Positions 41,808 through 49,624 are shown, numbered from the stretch's first letter. The stretch: 64,000 nucleotides of DNA from Trueperaceae bacterium (GCA_035703635.1 DASSXV010000065.1:1-64000), one strand, 5' to 3'. Numbers and translations: made by a program. Notes: a model not told the origin generated them from the letters alone.

Positions 41808-42482
41808 ATGAAGCTCCTCCTCACTTCAGCTGGAATCAAGAACGCAAGCATCCGCAGCGCGCTGGTTGCGATGCTCGGCAAGCCGATCGCAGAATCGAGC
41901 GCCCTAGCCATCCCGACCGCGAGTTACGGCCACCCGCTGGTCACCCCGGAAGGGGCGCTGAGCTTTCTCAACGGCACCGCCAGCACACCGATGTGCGAAC
42001 TCGGTTGGAAATCACTCGGGATTCTCGAGCTCACCGCGCTTCCGAGCATCGACAGAGAACGCTGGGAGCCCTGGGTCCGCCAGGCCGATGCGCTCCTCGT
42101 GAACGGTGGCGACGCGCTCTACCTAGCCCACTGGCTGCGCGCGTCTGGCCTGGCGCACCTACTGCCAACGCTCGACGACACCGTCTGGGTCGGCCTTAGC
42201 GCCGGCAGCATGGTGATGACGCCGCGTGTTGGGAAGGAGTTCGTCGAGTGGAAGCCGCCCATCCCCGGCGACGACCGTGCGTTGGGGGTCGTTGACTTCT
42301 CGATCTTCCCTCACCTCGGCCACCCCGACTTGCCTGACAACACCATGGCGAACGCCGAGCTCTGGGCCTCGCGGCTCGGCGGGCCGGCCTACGCGCTTGA
42401 CGATGACAGTGCCATCGCCGTCGTCGACGGTGATGCCGAGGTGGTTTCCGAGGGGCGCTGGCGGCGGTTCGACGTCGAGTAA
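41808..42482 (+). CDS. Peptidase S51 (dipeptidase E-like)
   Basis: MKLLLTSAG, IPTA, GGD, GLSAGSM, IFPH. Confidence 0.85.
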   Translation: MKLLLTSAGIKNASIRSALVAMLGKPIAESSALAIPTASYGHPLVTPEGALSFLNGTASTPMCELGWKSLGILELTALPSIDRERWEPWVRQADALLVNGGDALYLAHWLRASGLAHLLPTLDDTVWVGLSAGSMVMTPRVGKEFVEWKPPIPGDDRALGVVDFSIFPHLGHPDLPDNTMANAELWASRLGGPAYALDDDSAIAVVDGDAEVVSEGRWRRFDVE

Positions 42483-42619: not shown

Positions 42620-43237
42620 GTGACCGCGGCCGCGCTCGCCGGCTTCGGCCTCAGCCTCTCGATAATCGTGGCGCTAGGAGCGCAGAACGCCTTCGTGCTC
42701 CGCCAAGGCCTACGCCGCGAGCACGTCGGAATCGTTGTGGCCATCTGCACGGTGTCCGACGCCCTCCTCATCGCCGCGGGCGTCGCGGGCCTCGGGTACG
42801 TCCTCGAGGTCGTGCCATGGTTGACAAGCGCAACGCGGTGGTTAGGCGCCGCCTTCCTGATCGCTTACGGACTCCTCGCAGCCTGGCGCGCGTTGTGGGG
42901 CAAGGGTGAGGGACTAACGCCAGCCGTTGGCGGCGCTGCTGGCACCGCCGCGCTCCGTCCTGTGATCCTGCTGACACTAGCCATGACGTGGCTCAACCCG
43001 TCGGTCTACCTCGACACGGCCTTCATCATCGGCTCCGTGGCCGCAACGCACGGGGCAGCCAATTGGGCGTTCGCCGTCGGCGCCATGGCGGGAAGCGCGA
43101 TGTGGTTCACGGCGCTAGGCTTCGGCGCGCGCTACCTGGCGCGGTGGTTACGCACACCGCGCTCTTGGCGTTACCTAGACGGCGTCATCGCACTGCTGCT
43201 CTTCTACACAGCGGCGCGGTTAGTGGTTGGGCACTAG
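42620..43237 (+). CDS. LysE/ArgO family amino acid exporter
   Basis: GAQNAFVLRQG, TWLNP.VYLDT. Confidence 0.9.
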   Translation: MTAAALAGFGLSLSIIVALGAQNAFVLRQGLRREHVGIVVAICTVSDALLIAAGVAGLGYVLEVVPWLTSATRWLGAAFLIAYGLLAAWRALWGKGEGLTPAVGGAAGTAALRPVILLTLAMTWLNPSVYLDTAFIIGSVAATHGAANWAFAVGAMAGSAMWFTALGFGARYLARWLRTPRSWRYLDGVIALLLFYTAARLVVGH

Positions 43238-43391: not shown

Positions 43392-45449
43392 GTGAAGTAC
43401 AACGTCGTCTTCTACGACACCTTCGGGGGCAGCCTCAAGGAGCTGACCCTCGCCGAGCAAGGCGCCGTCATGAGCACCATGGTGGAGCTGACCGAGTCGC
43501 CCGACAGTCCCGGGCTCAACGTACACCGCATCGGTGACGCCTCCACGAAATGCTGGTCCGCCCGCGTGAACGACGACATCCGGCTCGTCTTCTTCCGCAC
43601 CGAGGCGATCGTGGTGCCGGCCTACGTGGGCCACCACGATGCGGCCTACCGCTGGGCGGAGGGACGCGCCCTGGACGTGCACCCAGGTACGGGCGCCGCT
43701 CAGATCGTCATAATTGGTGAACGCCGCGAAGAGATCATCAAGCGCATCGTCGTTCCCAAACTCGACGACCCGTTCGCCAAGCGCCCGTTCGAGCACCTGA
43801 CCGACGAAACCCTGCTCGCGTACGGCACCCCGAAAGCGTGGCTGCAGCCCATCAGGGAGGCAACCACTCAGGCGTTCCTCGACGAGATCGGCGACTTACT
43901 GCCCGCCGAGGCGTGTGAGTTCCTGATGGCGGTCGCGGCTGGCGAAACGCCGCCACCGCCACCAGCTCCGAAGCTCAGCCTCAACCCCTTCACGCACCCC
44001 GACGCGAAGCGGCGCTTCTACCTGGTGGAGTCCGACGAGGACCTAAGACGCGCCCTGACGCTCGACTGGGAGCAGTGGATGCTTTACCTCCACCCAAGCC
44101 AGCGAGAAGCGGTCGACAGAGAGTTCGCGGGACCCGCCCGCGTTACCGGCGGGCCCGGCACCGGGAAGTCGGTAGTGGCCGTCCACCGCGCCGCACGCCT
44201 GGCGCGACACGGCAACGGGCGCGTGCTGCTCACCAGCTTCTCGAAGACGCTAAGCAACCACCTGCGCCAACAGCTCGACCAGTTGCTGGCAGGCGACCCG
44301 GCCAGGGAACGCGTGGACGTGGTGCACTTGCACCAGCTCGCCGTCGACCGCCTCAGCGAGGCGCGTGGCGAGAGCCTCAAGGTGGCCGACGGCCCGGCGG
44401 TCGGCAAGGCGGCGAAGGGAGCCGCAGAGGCGCTCGGCGCTGCCACCGTAACCCCGGCCTTCCTGGAGGCCGAGTGGAACATGGTGGTAGACCCCTACGG
44501 GGTGACGACCTGGGAAGAGTACGCCGCGGTGGACCGCGCCGCCCGCGGCACGCCCCTGAACCGGGCCCAACGCGAACTAGCCTGGCGCGGCATCGAGGCT
44601 ATGCGGACGCCGTTGGAGGCCGCCGGGCTCACCACCTGGTCGAGGGTGTGCTGGGAACTGGTCGGGCGGCTGGAAGCGGGCGACGAGCGCCCGTACGCCC
44701 ACGTGATCGCCGACGAGGCGCAGGACTTCGGCCCCGCCGAGCTGCGCCTGCTGCGCGCCCTAGCCGCTAGCGGCACGAACGACGTGTTCCTCGCGTCCGA
44801 CGCCAACCAGCGCATCTTCAAGCCCTACACGCCCGTGGCGCGCGCGGGGCTCGAGGTGCGCGGTCGCTCAGTAACGCTGCGCGTCAATTACCGCATGACG
44901 GAGCAGATCCGCCGCGTGGCCGAGAGCATCATCGCCGGCAAAGTCGAATGCGACGAGCCGACGGCTGGGTCAATATCGCTCTTGGCTGGCCTTGAGCCGG
45001 AGGTCATCGTGGCGCCCGGCGTAACCGTGGAGATCCAGAGGGTGGCCGACTGGCTCAAGAAGCTGGTAGCCAACGGCTACCGCCCGGGCCAGATCGCCAT
45101 CTTCGCGAGGAAGAAGGACATCATCCAGAACCGGATCCATGCGGCTGTGAAAGCGGCAGGCCTAGAGGTGTTCGGTCTCGACTCGGACGACACGCCGCCG
45201 CCCAACCGCGTCGCCATCGGCACGATGCACCGCAGCAAAGGGCTGCAGTTCCGCGCCATCGCCATCATGGGGGTCGAGGACGGAACAGTGCCGCTCAACT
45301 CGGTGCGAACGCGGCAACCCGACGAGGCCGCGCAAAGGGCGTTCATGGAGATGGAGAGGAACTTGCTCTACGTGGCCTGTTCGCGGGCGCGGGAGCGGTT
45401 GTTGATCACGGGAGTTAAGCGGGGGTCGGAGTTTGTGTCGGCTAGCTAG
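43392..45449 (+). CDS. UvrD/SF1 helicase with N-terminal RelE/ParE-like domain
   Basis: GGPGTGKS, IADEAQD, DANQRI, NYR, TMHRSKGLQF, LYVACSRARE; N-terminal SARVNDDIRL..YVGHHDAAY. Confidence 0.85.
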   Translation: MKYNVVFYDTFGGSLKELTLAEQGAVMSTMVELTESPDSPGLNVHRIGDASTKCWSARVNDDIRLVFFRTEAIVVPAYVGHHDAAYRWAEGRALDVHPGTGAAQIVIIGERREEIIKRIVVPKLDDPFAKRPFEHLTDETLLAYGTPKAWLQPIREATTQAFLDEIGDLLPAEACEFLMAVAAGETPPPPPAPKLSLNPFTHPDAKRRFYLVESDEDLRRALTLDWEQWMLYLHPSQREAVDREFAGPARVTGGPGTGKSVVAVHRAARLARHGNGRVLLTSFSKTLSNHLRQQLDQLLAGDPARERVDVVHLHQLAVDRLSEARGESLKVADGPAVGKAAKGAAEALGAATVTPAFLEAEWNMVVDPYGVTTWEEYAAVDRAARGTPLNRAQRELAWRGIEAMRTPLEAAGLTTWSRVCWELVGRLEAGDERPYAHVIADEAQDFGPAELRLLRALAASGTNDVFLASDANQRIFKPYTPVARAGLEVRGRSVTLRVNYRMTEQIRRVAESIIAGKVECDEPTAGSISLLAGLEPEVIVAPGVTVEIQRVADWLKKLVANGYRPGQIAIFARKKDIIQNRIHAAVKAAGLEVFGLDSDDTPPPNRVAIGTMHRSKGLQFRAIAIMGVEDGTVPLNSVRTRQPDEAAQRAFMEMERNLLYVACSRARERLLITGVKRGSEFVSAS

Positions 45450-45506
45450 CGCTGTTCGAAAATGAGGTGACCCTCCTAACTTTCACGGCGTGGACGCGCT
45501 CCGACA

Positions 45507-46058
45507 CTAGGCGGTAACCAGGGCTGGCGGGGTCATTGCCCCTTCGATACGGCGCCTTATGTCCAGCACATCGTAGGTGCCGCTCACTCGAACCCGGACA
45601 AGCGGCACGCCAGCCGCGGCTAGCGCTCCGTTCTTCAACGCGTCAGCTCGGCGTGCTCTATCGCTAGCGTGGCTGGAATCGTCCAACTCCACCGCGCACA
45701 TAATGCGCGTCGAGTCAGGATCGACCAACACGAAGTCCAGGTGACGCGAGCTAATGCTGTTCCTAGCAGCCTGTCTTTCACTCTCCGACAGTCCGCGTCG
45801 GACCACAACCACGTCCTCCAGGCGCACCTTCCCGAACACCGCCATGTCTGGGGCAGCCTCGCGCAAGATGTGGAGGAAGCGCGTCTCGGTCTCCGTGAAG
45901 AGGCTAGGGCGCCGCTCGTACGGGAACCCGACCTTGCGCCGTTTGGTGGATCCTCCCAGGCGACCCTTAAGGACTGCCAAGCCGACAAGGCCAAGCAGCG
46001 CAACGATGAGCAGTGGCCCCATCTGTCGGAACGCGTTACTGAAAGCTTCCTCTAGCAT
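45507..46058 (-). CDS. DUF2726 domain protein with N-terminal TM helix
   Basis: LFTETE.RF, KVRLEDV, HLDFVL, AVELDDSSH, KN..L..AGVPLVR; SD ggggagg. Confidence 0.85.
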   Translation of the reverse strand: MLEEAFSNAFRQMGPLLIVALLGLVGLAVLKGRLGGSTKRRKVGFPYERRPSLFTETETRFLHILREAAPDMAVFGKVRLEDVVVVRRGLSESERQAARNSISSRHLDFVLVDPDSTRIMCAVELDDSSHASDRARRADALKNGALAAAGVPLVRVRVSGTYDVLDIRRRIEGAMTPPALVTA

Positions 46059-46280
46059 TGACCTCCCCAAACCAACACCTTGGACACTACGCCGAGGTAG
46101 TACGTGACATCGATACGCACGAGTAATCACTCTCTGAGCCCAACAGTGCTTCGTAGAGGCTACCGCATATTCCGCCGCACTTCGACCGTGATTGAGGGGC
46201 GCCGCCTTGCTACGAGACCCAGGCGGAAGTGAAGGGGTCCTATTGCTGCGCCCAGAACTCCTACGTCATCCGATAGCTCG

Positions 46281-46868
46281 TTAGCCACTGGGGAACGTGG
46301 TCTCAATAGTGCTCGCAATACGGCGCCTCGCCCTCTCGACATGTTCCGCCTGATCTTTCGACTCGACCGCCCCTGGCTGTAGACGACGAACGATTGCGAT
46401 GGCATCCTCGGCCGAGCGCCCGAAAGTCATGAGGACTATTGACACAATCGTGCCCGTCCGCCCGCGCCCGCCGCGGCAATGAACCACGACGGTCTCCCCC
46501 TCCACGAGGGCCGAGCAGACTTCGTTGACCAGACGATCGACATCATCCGCCTGAGAATCAGTCGGTATATCCCATAGACGATGGGAAAGTGGTGCACGCG
46601 GATGCCTCGCTGTTCCGCCGCTACGGAAAATCCCGGGATCCCAGGCATCACGTCTTCGAACGGCTCCGCAAGCGACCCGAGCGCTTGGACGCCATATACG
46701 TCCCTCAAGCGGGAAAAGTCGGCGTCGAGGCTCCATTCTCACCGCGCCCCCGTGACTAGACCGCCTTCTTGCTTGCCTCGGGCGGGCGTGTGGCCCAGAC
46801 CGCCGGATTCACCTTCGGCGGAGGGGCCCACCCAGCTTGTTCTTGATGATCTTCTGATCTGTCGTCAT
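46281..46868 (-). pseudogene. Pseudogene of a CDKN3/PTP-like phosphatase (paralogue of 48611-49216)
   Basis: Collinear with the intact copy; TGA at 46741-46739 replaces Trp of GARW; frameshift near 46575; keeps HCRGGRGRTG. Confidence 0.85.
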
Positions 46869-47038
46869 CACCAACCTCCACATCAACTAGAGATCGATGA
46901 CTGTCAGGCTAAGTCCCAACCATCACACGTAATCTCATGAGCGGAGGTTCCTCTCCCTGCAGGAATGGAACCTCCATTCTTTAACCGACCACCGTCACAA
47001 CAGAAGAAGGACTCAAGCATCACTGCAACCCGGTACCC

Positions 47039-47315
47039 TCAGCCGGAGGCCGCCGCGCGATTGATCTCACGGACGCGGCCCAACATCCGCTGCGCCAGAG
47101 CGATCTCGAAGGCGCCCAGGAAGGGTCCCTCGGCGAAGTGTTCCTGCCGGATGATCAGGGTGAACGGCTTCACGAGTTGAGCGACCGTGGCGTTTTCTAG
47201 CGCTCGGAGATCAATGCGCGGCGTCCGCGCCTCTCGCGTCCCCGCCCAACCTAACCAATCGATGCCCGTGAGAACTCACCCGTCCTCGTGCACAACCTTG
47301 ACCAGTTCGTCATCC
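47039..47315 (-). pseudogene. DUF6508-like pseudogene
   Basis: Manual translation HEDG*VLTGIDWLGWAGTREA...ATVAQLVKPFTLIIRQEHFAEGPFLGAFE; internal TGA at 47278-47276; no start found. Confidence 0.6.
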
Positions 47316-47376
47316 TGTGCAGATCCAGGTAGCGCTAATCAACAGAAGTAAGAACTCCTGCGCCCCCGACCAGTCA

Positions 47377-47604
47377 TCAGGCGCCGACTCGAACCTTCCC
47401 GTAACGACGTTGCAGTTGGGACCGCCACCCCTCCGGCCCCATTTCGTACCGGACCTCCATCACGTTGTAGGCGGCCTGAGACCCCAGCGCCCTAATCTCG
47501 TAATGTTTGGTCCTGACGTTGTAGGAGTACCGAGAACCCCGCGGCGCATACCCGTACTCACCGGTGGTGAAGTTGTACGTGAGCACCCAGCCGTCCTCAG
47601 TCAT
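47377..47604 (-). CDS. Small protein with 18-aa YN-x5-Y repeats, apparently frameshifted
   Basis: SD ggggagg; three repeats in frame and a fourth after a +1 shift. Confidence 0.55.
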   Translation of the reverse strand: MTEDGWVLTYNFTTGEYGYAPRGSRYSYNVRTKHYEIRALGSQAAYNVMEVRYEMGPEGWRSQLQRRYGKVRVGA

Positions 47605-47651
47605 CTAGAACCTCCCCTTGGTCGGGTTGTAACAGGCCTCCGCCACGCCTG

Positions 47652-48614
47652 CTACCGCGCCAGTTCGGCCAGCCCAAGGGCCAGACGCTCGATCTCGTCA
47701 CGCATGGCCAGCTTCTCGATCCACCGGCGCGGAATTCCACTAGCCCCGTAGTAGGCACCAGCGATCTGCCCGTACACCGCTCCGGTGGTGTCGGCGTCAT
47801 CGCCGAGGTTCACGGCCAGCAGGGCGCCCTCTTCGAACGAGTCGCTCTTCGCGAACGCCCACAGCGCCGCTTCCAAAGACTCCACCACGTAACCGCTGCC
47901 CCTGATCTCGGGCGGCTCCTTGCGCAGGAACGAGCCGGCGGCCACCTGCGCGACCTCCTTGCAGAGCGGCTCGGCGTTCCACGAGCCGGGGATCGGCGTG
48001 TAGTCGGGCGCCAGCAGCTCCTCCTTGCTGGCACCGTGGATGGCGCCCACGAGCAGGCCAGCCAGGTAGCGGCAGGCGTCCACGCAGGTGAGCGCGCCGT
48101 GCGTCGTGCGCGAGCTCTCGCCCGCGAGGCGGATGGCTTCGGTTGGGTCGTGTGCGAGCGCCATGGGCACGGGGGCCAAGCGCATGATGCTGCCGTTGCC
48201 AGCCGAGTTCGGATCCGTCGAACCGGCGAAGGGCTGGCCGCTATGCTCGAAGCGCTCTAGCGCCGTGCGCGTCGCGTTGCCGATGTCGAAGTAGTACCCC
48301 TTGACGCTGAAATGCCCCTCGCGGTACCAGCGCACGTAGCGTTGCATCTGATCACGCGGGTCGAAGGCGTGCTTCTCGACCAGGCTCTCCGCCAGGCAGA
48401 GCGCCATGCTCGTGTCGTCTGTCCATTCGCCTGGCTTCAGACTGAACGGCCCACCACCCACCATGTCGGTTAGGGGCTCGAAGTGGCCCGGATGTTGGAA
48501 CTCGAGCGTGGTTCCAAGGGCATCGCCTGCCGCTAGGCCGAGCAAAGCGCCGCGGCTTCGGTCGAGAGTGCTTGCAGCAGCGGCATCACCACCAACCGCG
48601 CCAGGAACGGTCAT
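47652..48614 (-). CDS. ADP-ribosylglycohydrolase (DraG/ARH family)
   Basis: [33 protein letters not shown]. Confidence 0.95.
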
Positions 48615-49216
48615 CGTGCGCCTCCGACGCGAGACACCGCGCTAGAAGCCAGGCGCCGGCTCGCCTCCCGAACGTACTGCTGCTGCTGTAAGTTCTCGAC
48701 CGCACGCGGCTGCGCGTCGCGAACGATTCGGATGGCGTCCTGCGGCTCATGCCCGAACGCGGTCAGGATAATCGAGGCGATCGTCCCCGTCCGCCCCTGG
48801 CCACCGCGGCAATGCACCACGACGCGTTCACCCGCACTCAGGGCTTGGCGGATTACACCCACGAGCTCGTCAACCGCGTTGGCCTGCTCGGCAGTAGGTA
48901 CGGACGTGTCGACAATCGGGAGGTGGTGGACGCGGATGCCGCGCTTCCTGGCTTCTGCGAACAGCGTCGGAATCCCAAGCATGTCGTACTCGAACTCCTC
49001 CATCAGCGACACGAGGACGTCGGTGCCGTGATGGTCCTTCAACCGGTCGAGGTCGGCGTAGAGGCTGCGCTCCCACCGGGCGCCGGTAACCATCCCTTCC
49101 CCACGCTTGCCGGGTGCGAAGGTAAGCCCCAGCTTGCCCTGGTTCGCGTGGGCCCCCGCCTCGACCCAGAACACCTCTATCGGGTGACTCTCGGAAGTTC
49201 GAACTTCGGTCGACAT
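48611..49216 (-). CDS. CDKN3-like protein-tyrosine/dual-specificity phosphatase fold protein
   Basis: [38 protein letters not shown]. Confidence 0.88.
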
Positions 49217-49324
49217 GTTCCCCCTTCGTTACGTGCCACTGATGCTCGCATCCGCGAGCGACGAGAAGTGACGCTCTGGGGCCAGCGGCTACCCTAAACC
49301 TGATCCTGCCCTCGCGGCGGTCCT

Positions 49325-49624
49325 CTACCGAGCCTCGTTCCGCGGAACTATCAGCCTTCCGTGCCCATCGACAGCGAGTCTTCCAGTGGCCATGGCACGG
49401 TCGACGACCTTGTTCATGCGGCTCCGTAGGCCGTTGGCCAGGTTCCGGATCACCGGCACGCGGTTGTGAGCGAAGGCGTAGGTGAGGCTGTCCCAGGCCT
49501 GGACGTCGATCTCGAACGGACCTGCCTCGGCGACGACCGACGCTTCGCTCGGTATCGGCTCGACCTCGAGCTCCTTATCGATCATGGGTTCCAAGTTGTC
49601 GTCAGCGTTCACCGTTACCCCCAA
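49325..49624 (-). CDS. Hypothetical protein or gene remnant
   Basis: 99-aa ORF co-oriented upstream of the phosphatase; weak start. Confidence 0.35.
   Translation of the reverse strand: MGVTVNADDNLEPMIDKELEVEPIPSEASVVAEAGPFEIDVQAWDSLTYAFAHNRVPVIRNLANGLRSRMNKVVDRAMATGRLAVDGHGRLIVPRNEAR

Follow-up and report, generated by a model that had tools for sequence, protein, structure and literature searches.

A phosphatase–ADP-ribosylglycohydrolase pair within a variable, partly decayed segment of a Trueperaceae genome

What does the gene block that lies between lysE and lrp in a Trueperaceae bacterium do, and is it one system at all? The 64,000-nucleotide stretch of DNA analysed here (GCA_035703635.1, DASSXV010000065.1:1-64000; hereafter the window) carries, at positions 43392 to 49624, genes for a RelE-headed UvrD helicase, a DUF2726 protein, two phosphatases, an ADP-ribosylglycohydrolase (ARH), a repeat-containing microprotein (micro75), a DUF6508 protein and a short open reading frame (ORF), ORF99. 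Our ORF and family scans find all of these at or near the positions given for them in an original prediction made from the sequence alone, in which the whole block was taken for a single, horizontally acquired and partly eroded anti-phage or toxin-countering module. We arrive at a different picture. With a probability of roughly 0.55, the block is a mosaic, partly decayed defence-type accessory segment built around one unit, the ARH and the intact phosphatase next to it (PTP1), which would be a member of a predicted module combining ADP-ribosylglycohydrolase (ARG) domains with rhodanese-phosphatases. The phosphatase–ARH locus is a further example of that published prediction and not a new system, whilst the helicase, DUF2726 and DUF6508 genes do not travel with the pair and do not make one system with it.

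The two central genes both lie on the minus strand. PTP1 (48611-49216) encodes an intact PTP-fold phosphatase of the rhodanese-phosphatase superfamily that scores 54.6 bits with PTP-SAK and 55.9 bits with Tc-R-P and resembles the small archaeal-type PTPs, DUSP23 and KAP; its catalytic residues D103, C136 and R142 are invariant or nearly so in alignments of 19 and 80 rows. The ARH gene (47652-48614) encodes an intact member of the DraG/Tri1 clade that matches PF03747 over the whole profile (283 bits). Across 14 aligned rows the ARH columns D66/D67, T171/H172 and D273/D275/T276 are invariant, and these we take, following the published description, to be the metal site and the TH motif. Since the catalytic motifs are kept in both proteins, both look active. 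The PTP1 stop codon overlaps the ARH start by 4 nucleotides (nt; ATGA), with GGAGG upstream, and the two genes constitute a translationally coupled operon, probably together with micro75.

Among solved structures, the window ARH is nearest to a Thermus protein (2cwc, E 3.5e-83) and to Tri1 of Serratia proteamaculans (6dre, E 2.9e-76), the match to ARH3 being partial (E about 1e-18, residues 4-180). As reported for Tri1 (PMC8120803), the enzyme cleaves ADP-ribose off arginine and confers protection from the toxin Tre1. The window enzyme falls in the same ARH clade and its chemistry is presumed, from this likeness, to be removal of ADP-ribose from arginine. It differs from Tri1 in scoring 341.4 bits where the equivalog cut-off of the NCBIfam model (NF041672) is 490, in matching profile positions 63-358 only and in lacking the N-terminal toxin-occluding extension (the alignment begins at residue 66 of Tri1); the window locus has, moreover, neither a Tre1-like toxin nor a type VI secretion neighbour. 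It differs likewise from DraG, scoring 172.5 bits against a cut-off of 337.05 (TIGR02662). The host genome, which is 97.65% complete, contains no other ARH. In this genome we found no ARPP-1, no match to DarT (PF14487) at E<=1 and no match to DraT, the last being weak evidence as the DraT control rang in no genome. Family scans also detected no ADP-ribosyltransferase or sirtuin family among the island ORFs. A single ARH in a genome with neither DarT nor DraT matches fits action on foreign modifications.

How the pair behaves in related genomes was followed in a set of 17 genomes of the same genus (G001-G017). Phosphatase homologues occur in nine of them, in a context that differs in nearly every species, and in six (G001, G003, G011, G012, G013 and G016) an ARH is adjacent or fused to the phosphatase. 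The fusion is a single ORF of 493 amino acids in G001, where an LRR protein is found nearby, and of 524 in G016. G012 has an ATP-dependent ligase gene immediately before PTP-ARH, in the same orientation, and BrxA/BrxB downstream; in G003 an insertion sequence truncates the phosphatase and BrxA is present; in G011 the surroundings include PIN/Phd genes and, about 700 bp from the pair, Sir2. These same-genus contexts are accessory or defence-like. The G016 locus also shows a 655-residue vWA+Macro protein (L014:4775-6742, plus strand) that overlaps the start of the PTP-ARH fusion, after which come a LysM/coiled-coil protein and DUF488.

Outside the genus, the association was surveyed across phyla by a genome scan with a phosphatase alignment, which gave 125 relatives, 80 loci being kept. 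The phosphatase ORF itself contains PF03747 at 23 of the 80 loci, and a local hidden Markov model (HMM) likewise finds 23 fused ARHs, together with six adjacent on the same strand and one in another arrangement; tblastn adds one copy that is cut by a contig end. Recurrence of the phosphatase–ARH pair at about 30 of 80 loci is the part of the proposed gene neighbourhood that held, whereas DUF2726, DUF6508 and ORF99 homologues lie beside the phosphatase at none of the 80. Both orders of the two domains occur and the ARHs concerned are 23-81% identical to that of the window; the coupling of PTP and ARH has therefore arisen more than once. In the protein collection, 12 of 30 longer phosphatase homologues are PTP+ARH fusions. 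One other long homologue (P0007) is a 1365-residue fusion of the phosphatase family with a superfamily 1 (SF1) helicase (AAA_11/AAA_12) and an RNase-H-like domain.

A scan of viral contigs, again with 80 loci kept, gave a near full-length phosphatase at 16 and an ARH in the same locus at five, with no evidence for a phage-borne pair among the 80. The best of these five (L140, from IMG/VR) otherwise holds host-type genes, namely an OprB porin and ZnuABC. It encodes a 654-residue NUDIX-PTP-ARH fusion (L140:5368-7332, plus strand), next to which are a DEAD helicase and a restriction-modification enzyme of the MmeI type.

This recurring unit corresponds closely to a group of systems described by Iyer, Burroughs, Anantharaman and Aravind (Viruses 2022; PMC9503650, section 3.8). 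As set out in that section, ARG domains found without a coupled transferase have a phosphatase in about 55% of their neighbourhoods, most often one of the rhodanese-phosphatase superfamily and either fused or adjacent. Variable additions comprise vWA, YbjN-type chaperones, Macro/NADAR, restriction endonuclease (REase) effectors linked to helicases, and ARPP, and Nudix or WYL regulators are present in 42% of systems. The authors' prediction is that these systems clear host macromolecules of the ADP-ribose that viral transferases attach to them. The window and its relatives share with section 3.8 the ARG/ARH domain without a coupled transferase, the PTP-fold phosphatase that is tightly adjacent in the window and fused in relatives, and the accretion of vWA, YbjN-type, Macro, REase-fold and helicase genes with rapid turnover between close genomes. 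The likeness in having no coupled sirtuin carries a caveat, namely the Sir2 gene near the pair in G011. The window departs from the section in having no ARPP at the locus, in the presence of micro75 alongside the pair, and in its REase, DUF2726, which the main text does not name although the supplement may list it. The original prediction did not recognise the block as a named system, and of its proteins PADLOC models match the helicase alone; its ARG and rhodanese-phosphatase core, however, is one that PMC9503650 had already put forward as a predicted system.

Phages carry ADP-ribosylation enzymes, for example those of the T4 Alt/Mod type. A module of the kind proposed would strip ADP-ribose from host macromolecules on which the ADP-ribosyltransferases of a phage, or of a competitor's toxin, had placed it. 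In a first step the DraG/Tri1-clade ARH would hydrolyse the ADP-ribosyl-arginine bond on modified host proteins. In a second, the cysteine-based phosphatase may take the terminal phosphate off an ADP-ribose-derived product, for example one left after Nudix action, or off a co-modified target. That the phosphatase might act on an ADP-ribose-derived phosphate is suggested indirectly by the NUDIX-PTP-ARH fusion.

Where does the segment that holds the pair begin and end? Upstream of the helicase are genes for an S51 peptidase (41808-42482) and LysE (42620-43237), both on the plus strand. The minus-strand run from ORF99 to DUF2726 converges with the plus-strand helicase, and beyond ORF99 lie the Lrp/AsnC gene (50458-49889, minus strand) and a peptide ABC transporter. 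The closest relative, G010, whose proteins are 85-99% identical, is syntenic with the window from 36.6 kb until 45461, shortly beyond the end of the helicase gene; 270 nt of unrelated sequence follow there before the contig ends, and a second G010 contig begins within lrp. The lrp gene and the transporter are common to G016, G017 and G013, with no window-like sequence past lrp there. Since synteny is lost soon after the helicase gene ends and again where lrp stops, the variable accessory segment is that from about 45.46 to 49.89 kb. The original idea of an acquired module survives to the extent that this segment is variable, accessory and not conserved core, with two eroded genes; it fails in that the helicase belongs to the conserved flank in G010 and in that the block is not one co-inherited module.

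Base composition adds little. A less GC-rich stretch had been proposed, and G+C content is indeed 0.586-0.622 across 45.75-47.75 kb versus 0.64-0.72 leftward, but the dip is modest because the lrp flank is similarly low (0.61-0.63), and by itself composition is weak evidence. At third codon positions (GC3) the value is 0.58 for the second phosphatase gene and 0.68 for DUF2726, against 0.79-0.87 in intact neighbour genes. Promoter and terminator scans gave results at or below shuffle expectation.

Two genes of the segment are decayed. The second phosphatase gene (PTP2ps; 46305-46840, minus strand) is a pseudogene in two frames separated by one frameshift, its HCx5R motif still readable; the pieces at 46577-46840, which contains one in-frame TGA, and 46305-46571 are 52% and 55% identical to PTP1, respectively. 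The original prediction regarded it as a duplicate of PTP1. We built a midpoint-rooted tree of 25 phosphatase sequences, rows being hand-picked from the loci, in which PTP2ps and the G011 copy come out as sisters (support 97/89), apart from PTP1. This grouping rules out a recent tandem duplication, and PTP2ps is, on the evidence of the tree, a separate lineage. The other pseudogene (47060-47311, minus strand) matches DUF6508 with 54.2 bits at profile positions 48-127 of 129, has one in-frame TGA and is missing roughly the first 47 positions of the profile. Reading through 46.1-47.7 kb reveals remnants of the phosphatase and DUF6508 only. DUF6508 is present in two of the 17 congeners, at a distance from the pair, beside McrC in one and beside MFS/Nudix genes in the other; the family may be defence-associated, and the term 'DUF6508' was found in no paper in the literature searched. 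An intact DUF6508 gene stands directly after a gene of the McrC family, a component of McrBC restriction, in G012 (contig C179; L105:123-1364, 1432-1911).

Between the two pseudogenes is a non-coding-looking stretch of 98 nt (46831-46928), which has a copy at 74% identity on another contig of the same genome (C43:47474-47559); 87 adjoining nt match G003 at 80%. The stretch and its copy may represent a small repeat element.

The DUF2726 gene (45507-46130, minus strand) encodes a protein with a hydrophobic N-terminal segment, as judged from its translation, and scores 111.5 bits against a cut-off of 24.7 (PF10881), NCBIfam giving no match. The family is of the PD-(D/E)XK or REase fold with a record of multiple transfers (PMC3424549, PMC3710099). 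None of the 17 congeners has DUF2726, and the gene looks like independent cargo. At the far end of the run, ORF99 (49325-49624, minus strand) has a coding-looking composition (GC3 0.80; 0.41 at second codon positions) but no Pfam or NCBIfam family and no usable match in the ESM Atlas, and none of the fetched loci contains a homologue; it is of uncertain status as a gene.

A history of the segment may be pictured from these observations. A second cassette, made up of the divergent phosphatase and DUF6508, would have decayed in place, and the nuclease-fold DUF2726 gene would be a separate and recent arrival. The helicase is an orphan, sited in the flank, of a restriction-like operon family, and within the genus it may be tied to the pair more loosely, by function or by a shared hotspot.

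The helicase gene (43392-45449, plus strand) encodes 685 amino acids comprising a RelE/YoeB-fold head, a helical linker and a GajB-like UvrD SF1 helicase (UvrD_C 65.3 bits, UvrD-helicase 54 bits), and seems intact, with GPGTGKS and DEAQD motifs present. Against a HigB-like toxin profile the head (approximately residues 1-95) scores 18.7 bits, below the cut-off. A word-indexed search with residues 1-230 found 368 proteins, mostly of 680-705 residues and the same architecture. JGI gives several of these homologues the name 'RelE', and PF05015 is present in a few, whilst an AlphaFold2 (AF2) model of the head with a mean predicted local distance difference test (pLDDT) score of 78.9 has YafQ, RelE and YoeB as its best Foldseek matches in the PDB (template-modelling scores by target 0.69-0.83). 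As names, family and modelled fold all point to a RelE-like head, the 'RelE-UvrD' label first applied to the protein is correct. Residues H45, D62, R64, H81, H82 and Y86 of the head are invariant in a 54-row alignment. The PADLOC models, run on the seven island proteins, call the helicase either GajB-like or 'NERD+UvrD', the best GajB match being partial (89.6 bits, best over residues 433-590), and they match no other island protein; no GajA OLD/ATPase nuclease adjoins the helicase, in contrast to Gabija.

The head alignment was also used to search metagenome contigs, from which 80 loci (median 7.6 kb) were retained. Of these, 43 have 3 kb or more upstream of the helicase, and in 38 of the 43 that region holds a large protein cluster on the same strand whose representatives are N6/N4 DNA methylases, and a ResIII/endonuclease protein of about 1,000 residues is also present in 26 of the 43. 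Across the kept loci (L197-L276) the helicase is usually the third gene, after this ResIII/endonuclease protein and a methylase of roughly 1,050-1,100 residues. The family is normally the last gene of a restriction-like (Res-like/methylase) operon and is defence-associated. ArmD, an essential component of ARMADA type II (PMC12458937), has the same RelE-like head on a GajB-like UvrD helicase, and differs from the window protein in following ArmA (BrxHII-like), ArmB (a PglX-like methylase) and ArmC (a YprA-like helicase). The window helicase is an orphan: upstream are only the S51 peptidase and LysE genes, with no methylase, Res-like or YprA-like partner. Within the genus the head is found in four of the 17 relatives.

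Several observations weigh against a defence module of the published kind. That system is itself a prediction, and we found no experimental test of the ARG-phosphatase module in the literature searched. Whilst section 3.8 of PMC9503650 associates Nudix or WYL regulators with many such systems, the window has neither between 43.3 and 49.9 kb, the only regulator nearby being Lrp/AsnC in the conserved flank. At 50 of the 80 loci the phosphatase is present without an ARH, and it can therefore act on its own. A census of codon-position-filtered gene picks around the 30 ARH-linked loci yielded 52 neighbouring ORFs: three for riboflavin synthesis, two PilZ, two vWA, one WCX, one ligase, one PIN and 23 without a family, the remainder being mostly metabolic. 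These 52 immediate neighbours include no helicase, REase or Nudix gene, and outside the genus the PTP-ARH module is often in ordinary surroundings. As for mobility, no integrase, tRNA gene, flanking repeat or Rfam family marks the segment, the search for flanking direct or inverted repeats returning short, chance-like matches only; and comparison with relatives showed no empty site, as the G010 contigs stop at both borders. Lastly, the helicase is perhaps no mere bystander. Its co-localisation with the phosphatase has occurred independently twice in one genus, in the window and in G013/G008, with different arrangements: in G013 (two contigs) and G008 a RelE-UvrD helicase is divergent from and adjoins the phosphatase, with AddB/AddA-like genes next. 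This recurrence exceeds chance placement in a 3-Mb genome and may reflect a shared hotspot or function. Following the helicase in these two genomes is a pair of AddB-like (PD-(D/E)XK) and AddA-like (UvrD+PD-(D/E)XK) genes (L011:10469-15999, L012:934-6935), and in G008 a YbjN protein is encoded nearby.

The ordinary surroundings raise the question of whether the pair has any role in conflict. It could instead be a housekeeping unit that reverses endogenous ADP-ribosylation, clears sirtuin-derived O-acetyl-ADP-ribose or dephosphorylates ribosyl metabolites in damage control of the NAD or riboflavin type. The riboflavin-synthesis genes beside three of the 30 modules, the many metabolic neighbours of others, the Sir2 gene close to the pair in G011 and the presence of the ARH family in seven of 14 control genomes all fit such a role. 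In three Chloroflexota-type contigs (L086, L087 and L092) PTP-ARH fusions come directly after lumazine synthase and RibBA, which hints at a metabolic role in that sub-lineage, for instance as a missing phosphatase step or in damage control. For the window, we consider a housekeeping role unlikely: the genus distribution is patchy, at nine of 17 genomes, and the locus changes with nearly every species; neighbours there include BREX genes, a toxin-antitoxin pair, a restriction-type helicase and the vWA-Macro protein; and cassettes turn over, leaving in the window a decayed second copy from another lineage.

The ligase in G012 suggests another possibility, namely a healing of nucleic-acid ends in which the ARH takes off ADP-ribose that caps the phosphate groups of DNA or RNA ends, the phosphatase trims the terminal phosphate and a ligase or helicase completes the repair. 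Such a pathway would parallel, without homology, the Deinococcus radiodurans DRB0100-DRB0099-DRB0098 operon, which encodes a ligase, a PARG and a phosphatase/kinase and for which PMC11833690 considers a role in defence and repair. The same source has ARH-like enzymes removing ADP-ribose from RNA and DNA phosphate ends. The logic of an ADP-ribose hydrolase with a phosphatase is common to both, with a ligase added in G012, and a helicase and a nuclease-fold gene are close by in the window. However, the Deinococcus operon, as described there, pairs a macrodomain PARG with an HD protein rather than an ARH with a cysteine-based phosphatase, and the window has no ligase. The window ARH is nearest to the arginine-specific DraG/Tri1 enzymes and only partially like ARH3, and a ligase is the neighbour at just one of 30 loci (a ligase ORF is at L025:105-1091). 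End healing is accordingly a decidedly unlikely function for the pair.

A further partner may be micro75. This 75-residue protein (47377-47604, minus strand) has a GGGGAGG Shine-Dalgarno sequence 7 nt upstream of its gene and consists of tandem repeats of about 19 residues, 'DW.L.YN..TG.Y.YAP.GS'. It matches no Pfam or NCBIfam family, and eight relatives were found at E<=1e-3 among 1.84 billion representatives; some of these (P0153, P0155) have a C-terminal membrane segment. An AF2 model from a 10-row alignment shows six short strands and, at a pLDDT of 59.6, is too poor for a fold search; the ESM Atlas holds no usable match, and the Atlas's own models of ORF99 and micro75 reach a pLDDT of 0.49-0.50. 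Homologues adjoin the phosphatase–ARH pair in G012, G003 and contig L028, in three arrangements (L015:2891-3070 and L018:8313-8504, both on the minus strand, and L028:3077-3256 on the plus strand), and micro75 is a candidate new partner of the pair. With these three contigs and the two independent helicase-phosphatase co-localisations in mind, one can imagine, in this lineage of Deinococcota, an undescribed working combination in which the pair senses or reverses foreign ADP-ribosylation, the helicase with its RNase-like head is the effector, and micro75 acts as adaptor or inhibitor. We regard this as a long shot.

The claim from which this work started was that all the genes make one anti-phage system, with the helicase and DUF2726 attacking nucleic acid and the other two enzymes, ARH and phosphatase, dealing with ADP-ribose or with the ends of RNA. 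From DUF2726 to ORF99 the genes are co-directional with short gaps; among the variable additions to the ARG core, section 3.8 of PMC9503650 counts REase effectors 'further linked to helicases'; and the divergent helicase homologues beside the phosphatase(-ARH) in G013 and G008 and the phosphatase-SF1 helicase fusion P0007 are in its favour. The surveys nevertheless make it very doubtful. In addition to the absence of DUF2726, DUF6508 and ORF99 from the 80 phosphatase loci, the helicase adjoins the phosphatase at three, with a full-length match at only one, from G008. None of the 80 helicase-family metagenome loci contains a homologue of PTP1, ARH, DUF2726, DUF6508, micro75 or ORF99 (tblastn at E<=1e-3 and the local ARH HMM). 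The helicase, convergent with the run and outside its operon, falls within the conserved flank in G010; two of the genes have become pseudogenes, no congener was found to have DUF2726, and PADLOC matches the helicase only. What stands of the proposed union of nuclease and ADP-ribose functions is a real ARH-phosphatase pair tied to ADP-ribose processing and, separately, a helicase of a defence-associated family.

Finally, a toxin-antitoxin remnant of the DarT-DarG3-helicase (DarHTG) or DraT/DraG kind, with the ARH as antitoxin of a lost transferase, is most improbable: although DarHTG (Liu-DS3; PMC13069673) joins a UvrD-like helicase, DarT and an ARH-like antitoxin, much as a UvrD-like helicase lies near an ARH-type hydrolase in the window, and the island does contain decayed genes, the genome has no DarT match at E<=1 and no DraT match (the latter weak, given the silent control), the island ORFs show no transferase family, the sequence of 46.1-47.7 kb, read through, yields phosphatase and DUF6508 remnants alone, and the window helicase carries a RelE head and is convergent with the ARH gene rather than in one operon with it.

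If the mosaic segment is indeed built around an ARG and rhodanese-phosphatase unit, it bears on a subject, the bacterial reversal of ADP-ribosylation by phages or rival toxins, that is largely untested and for which the ARG-phosphatase module is the main published prediction. The window locus and its relatives offer compact, intact versions of two or three genes, natural fusions and a Nudix-PTP-ARH triple fusion, that could serve to test that prediction, and the locus illustrates the turnover and decay of modules within one hotspot.

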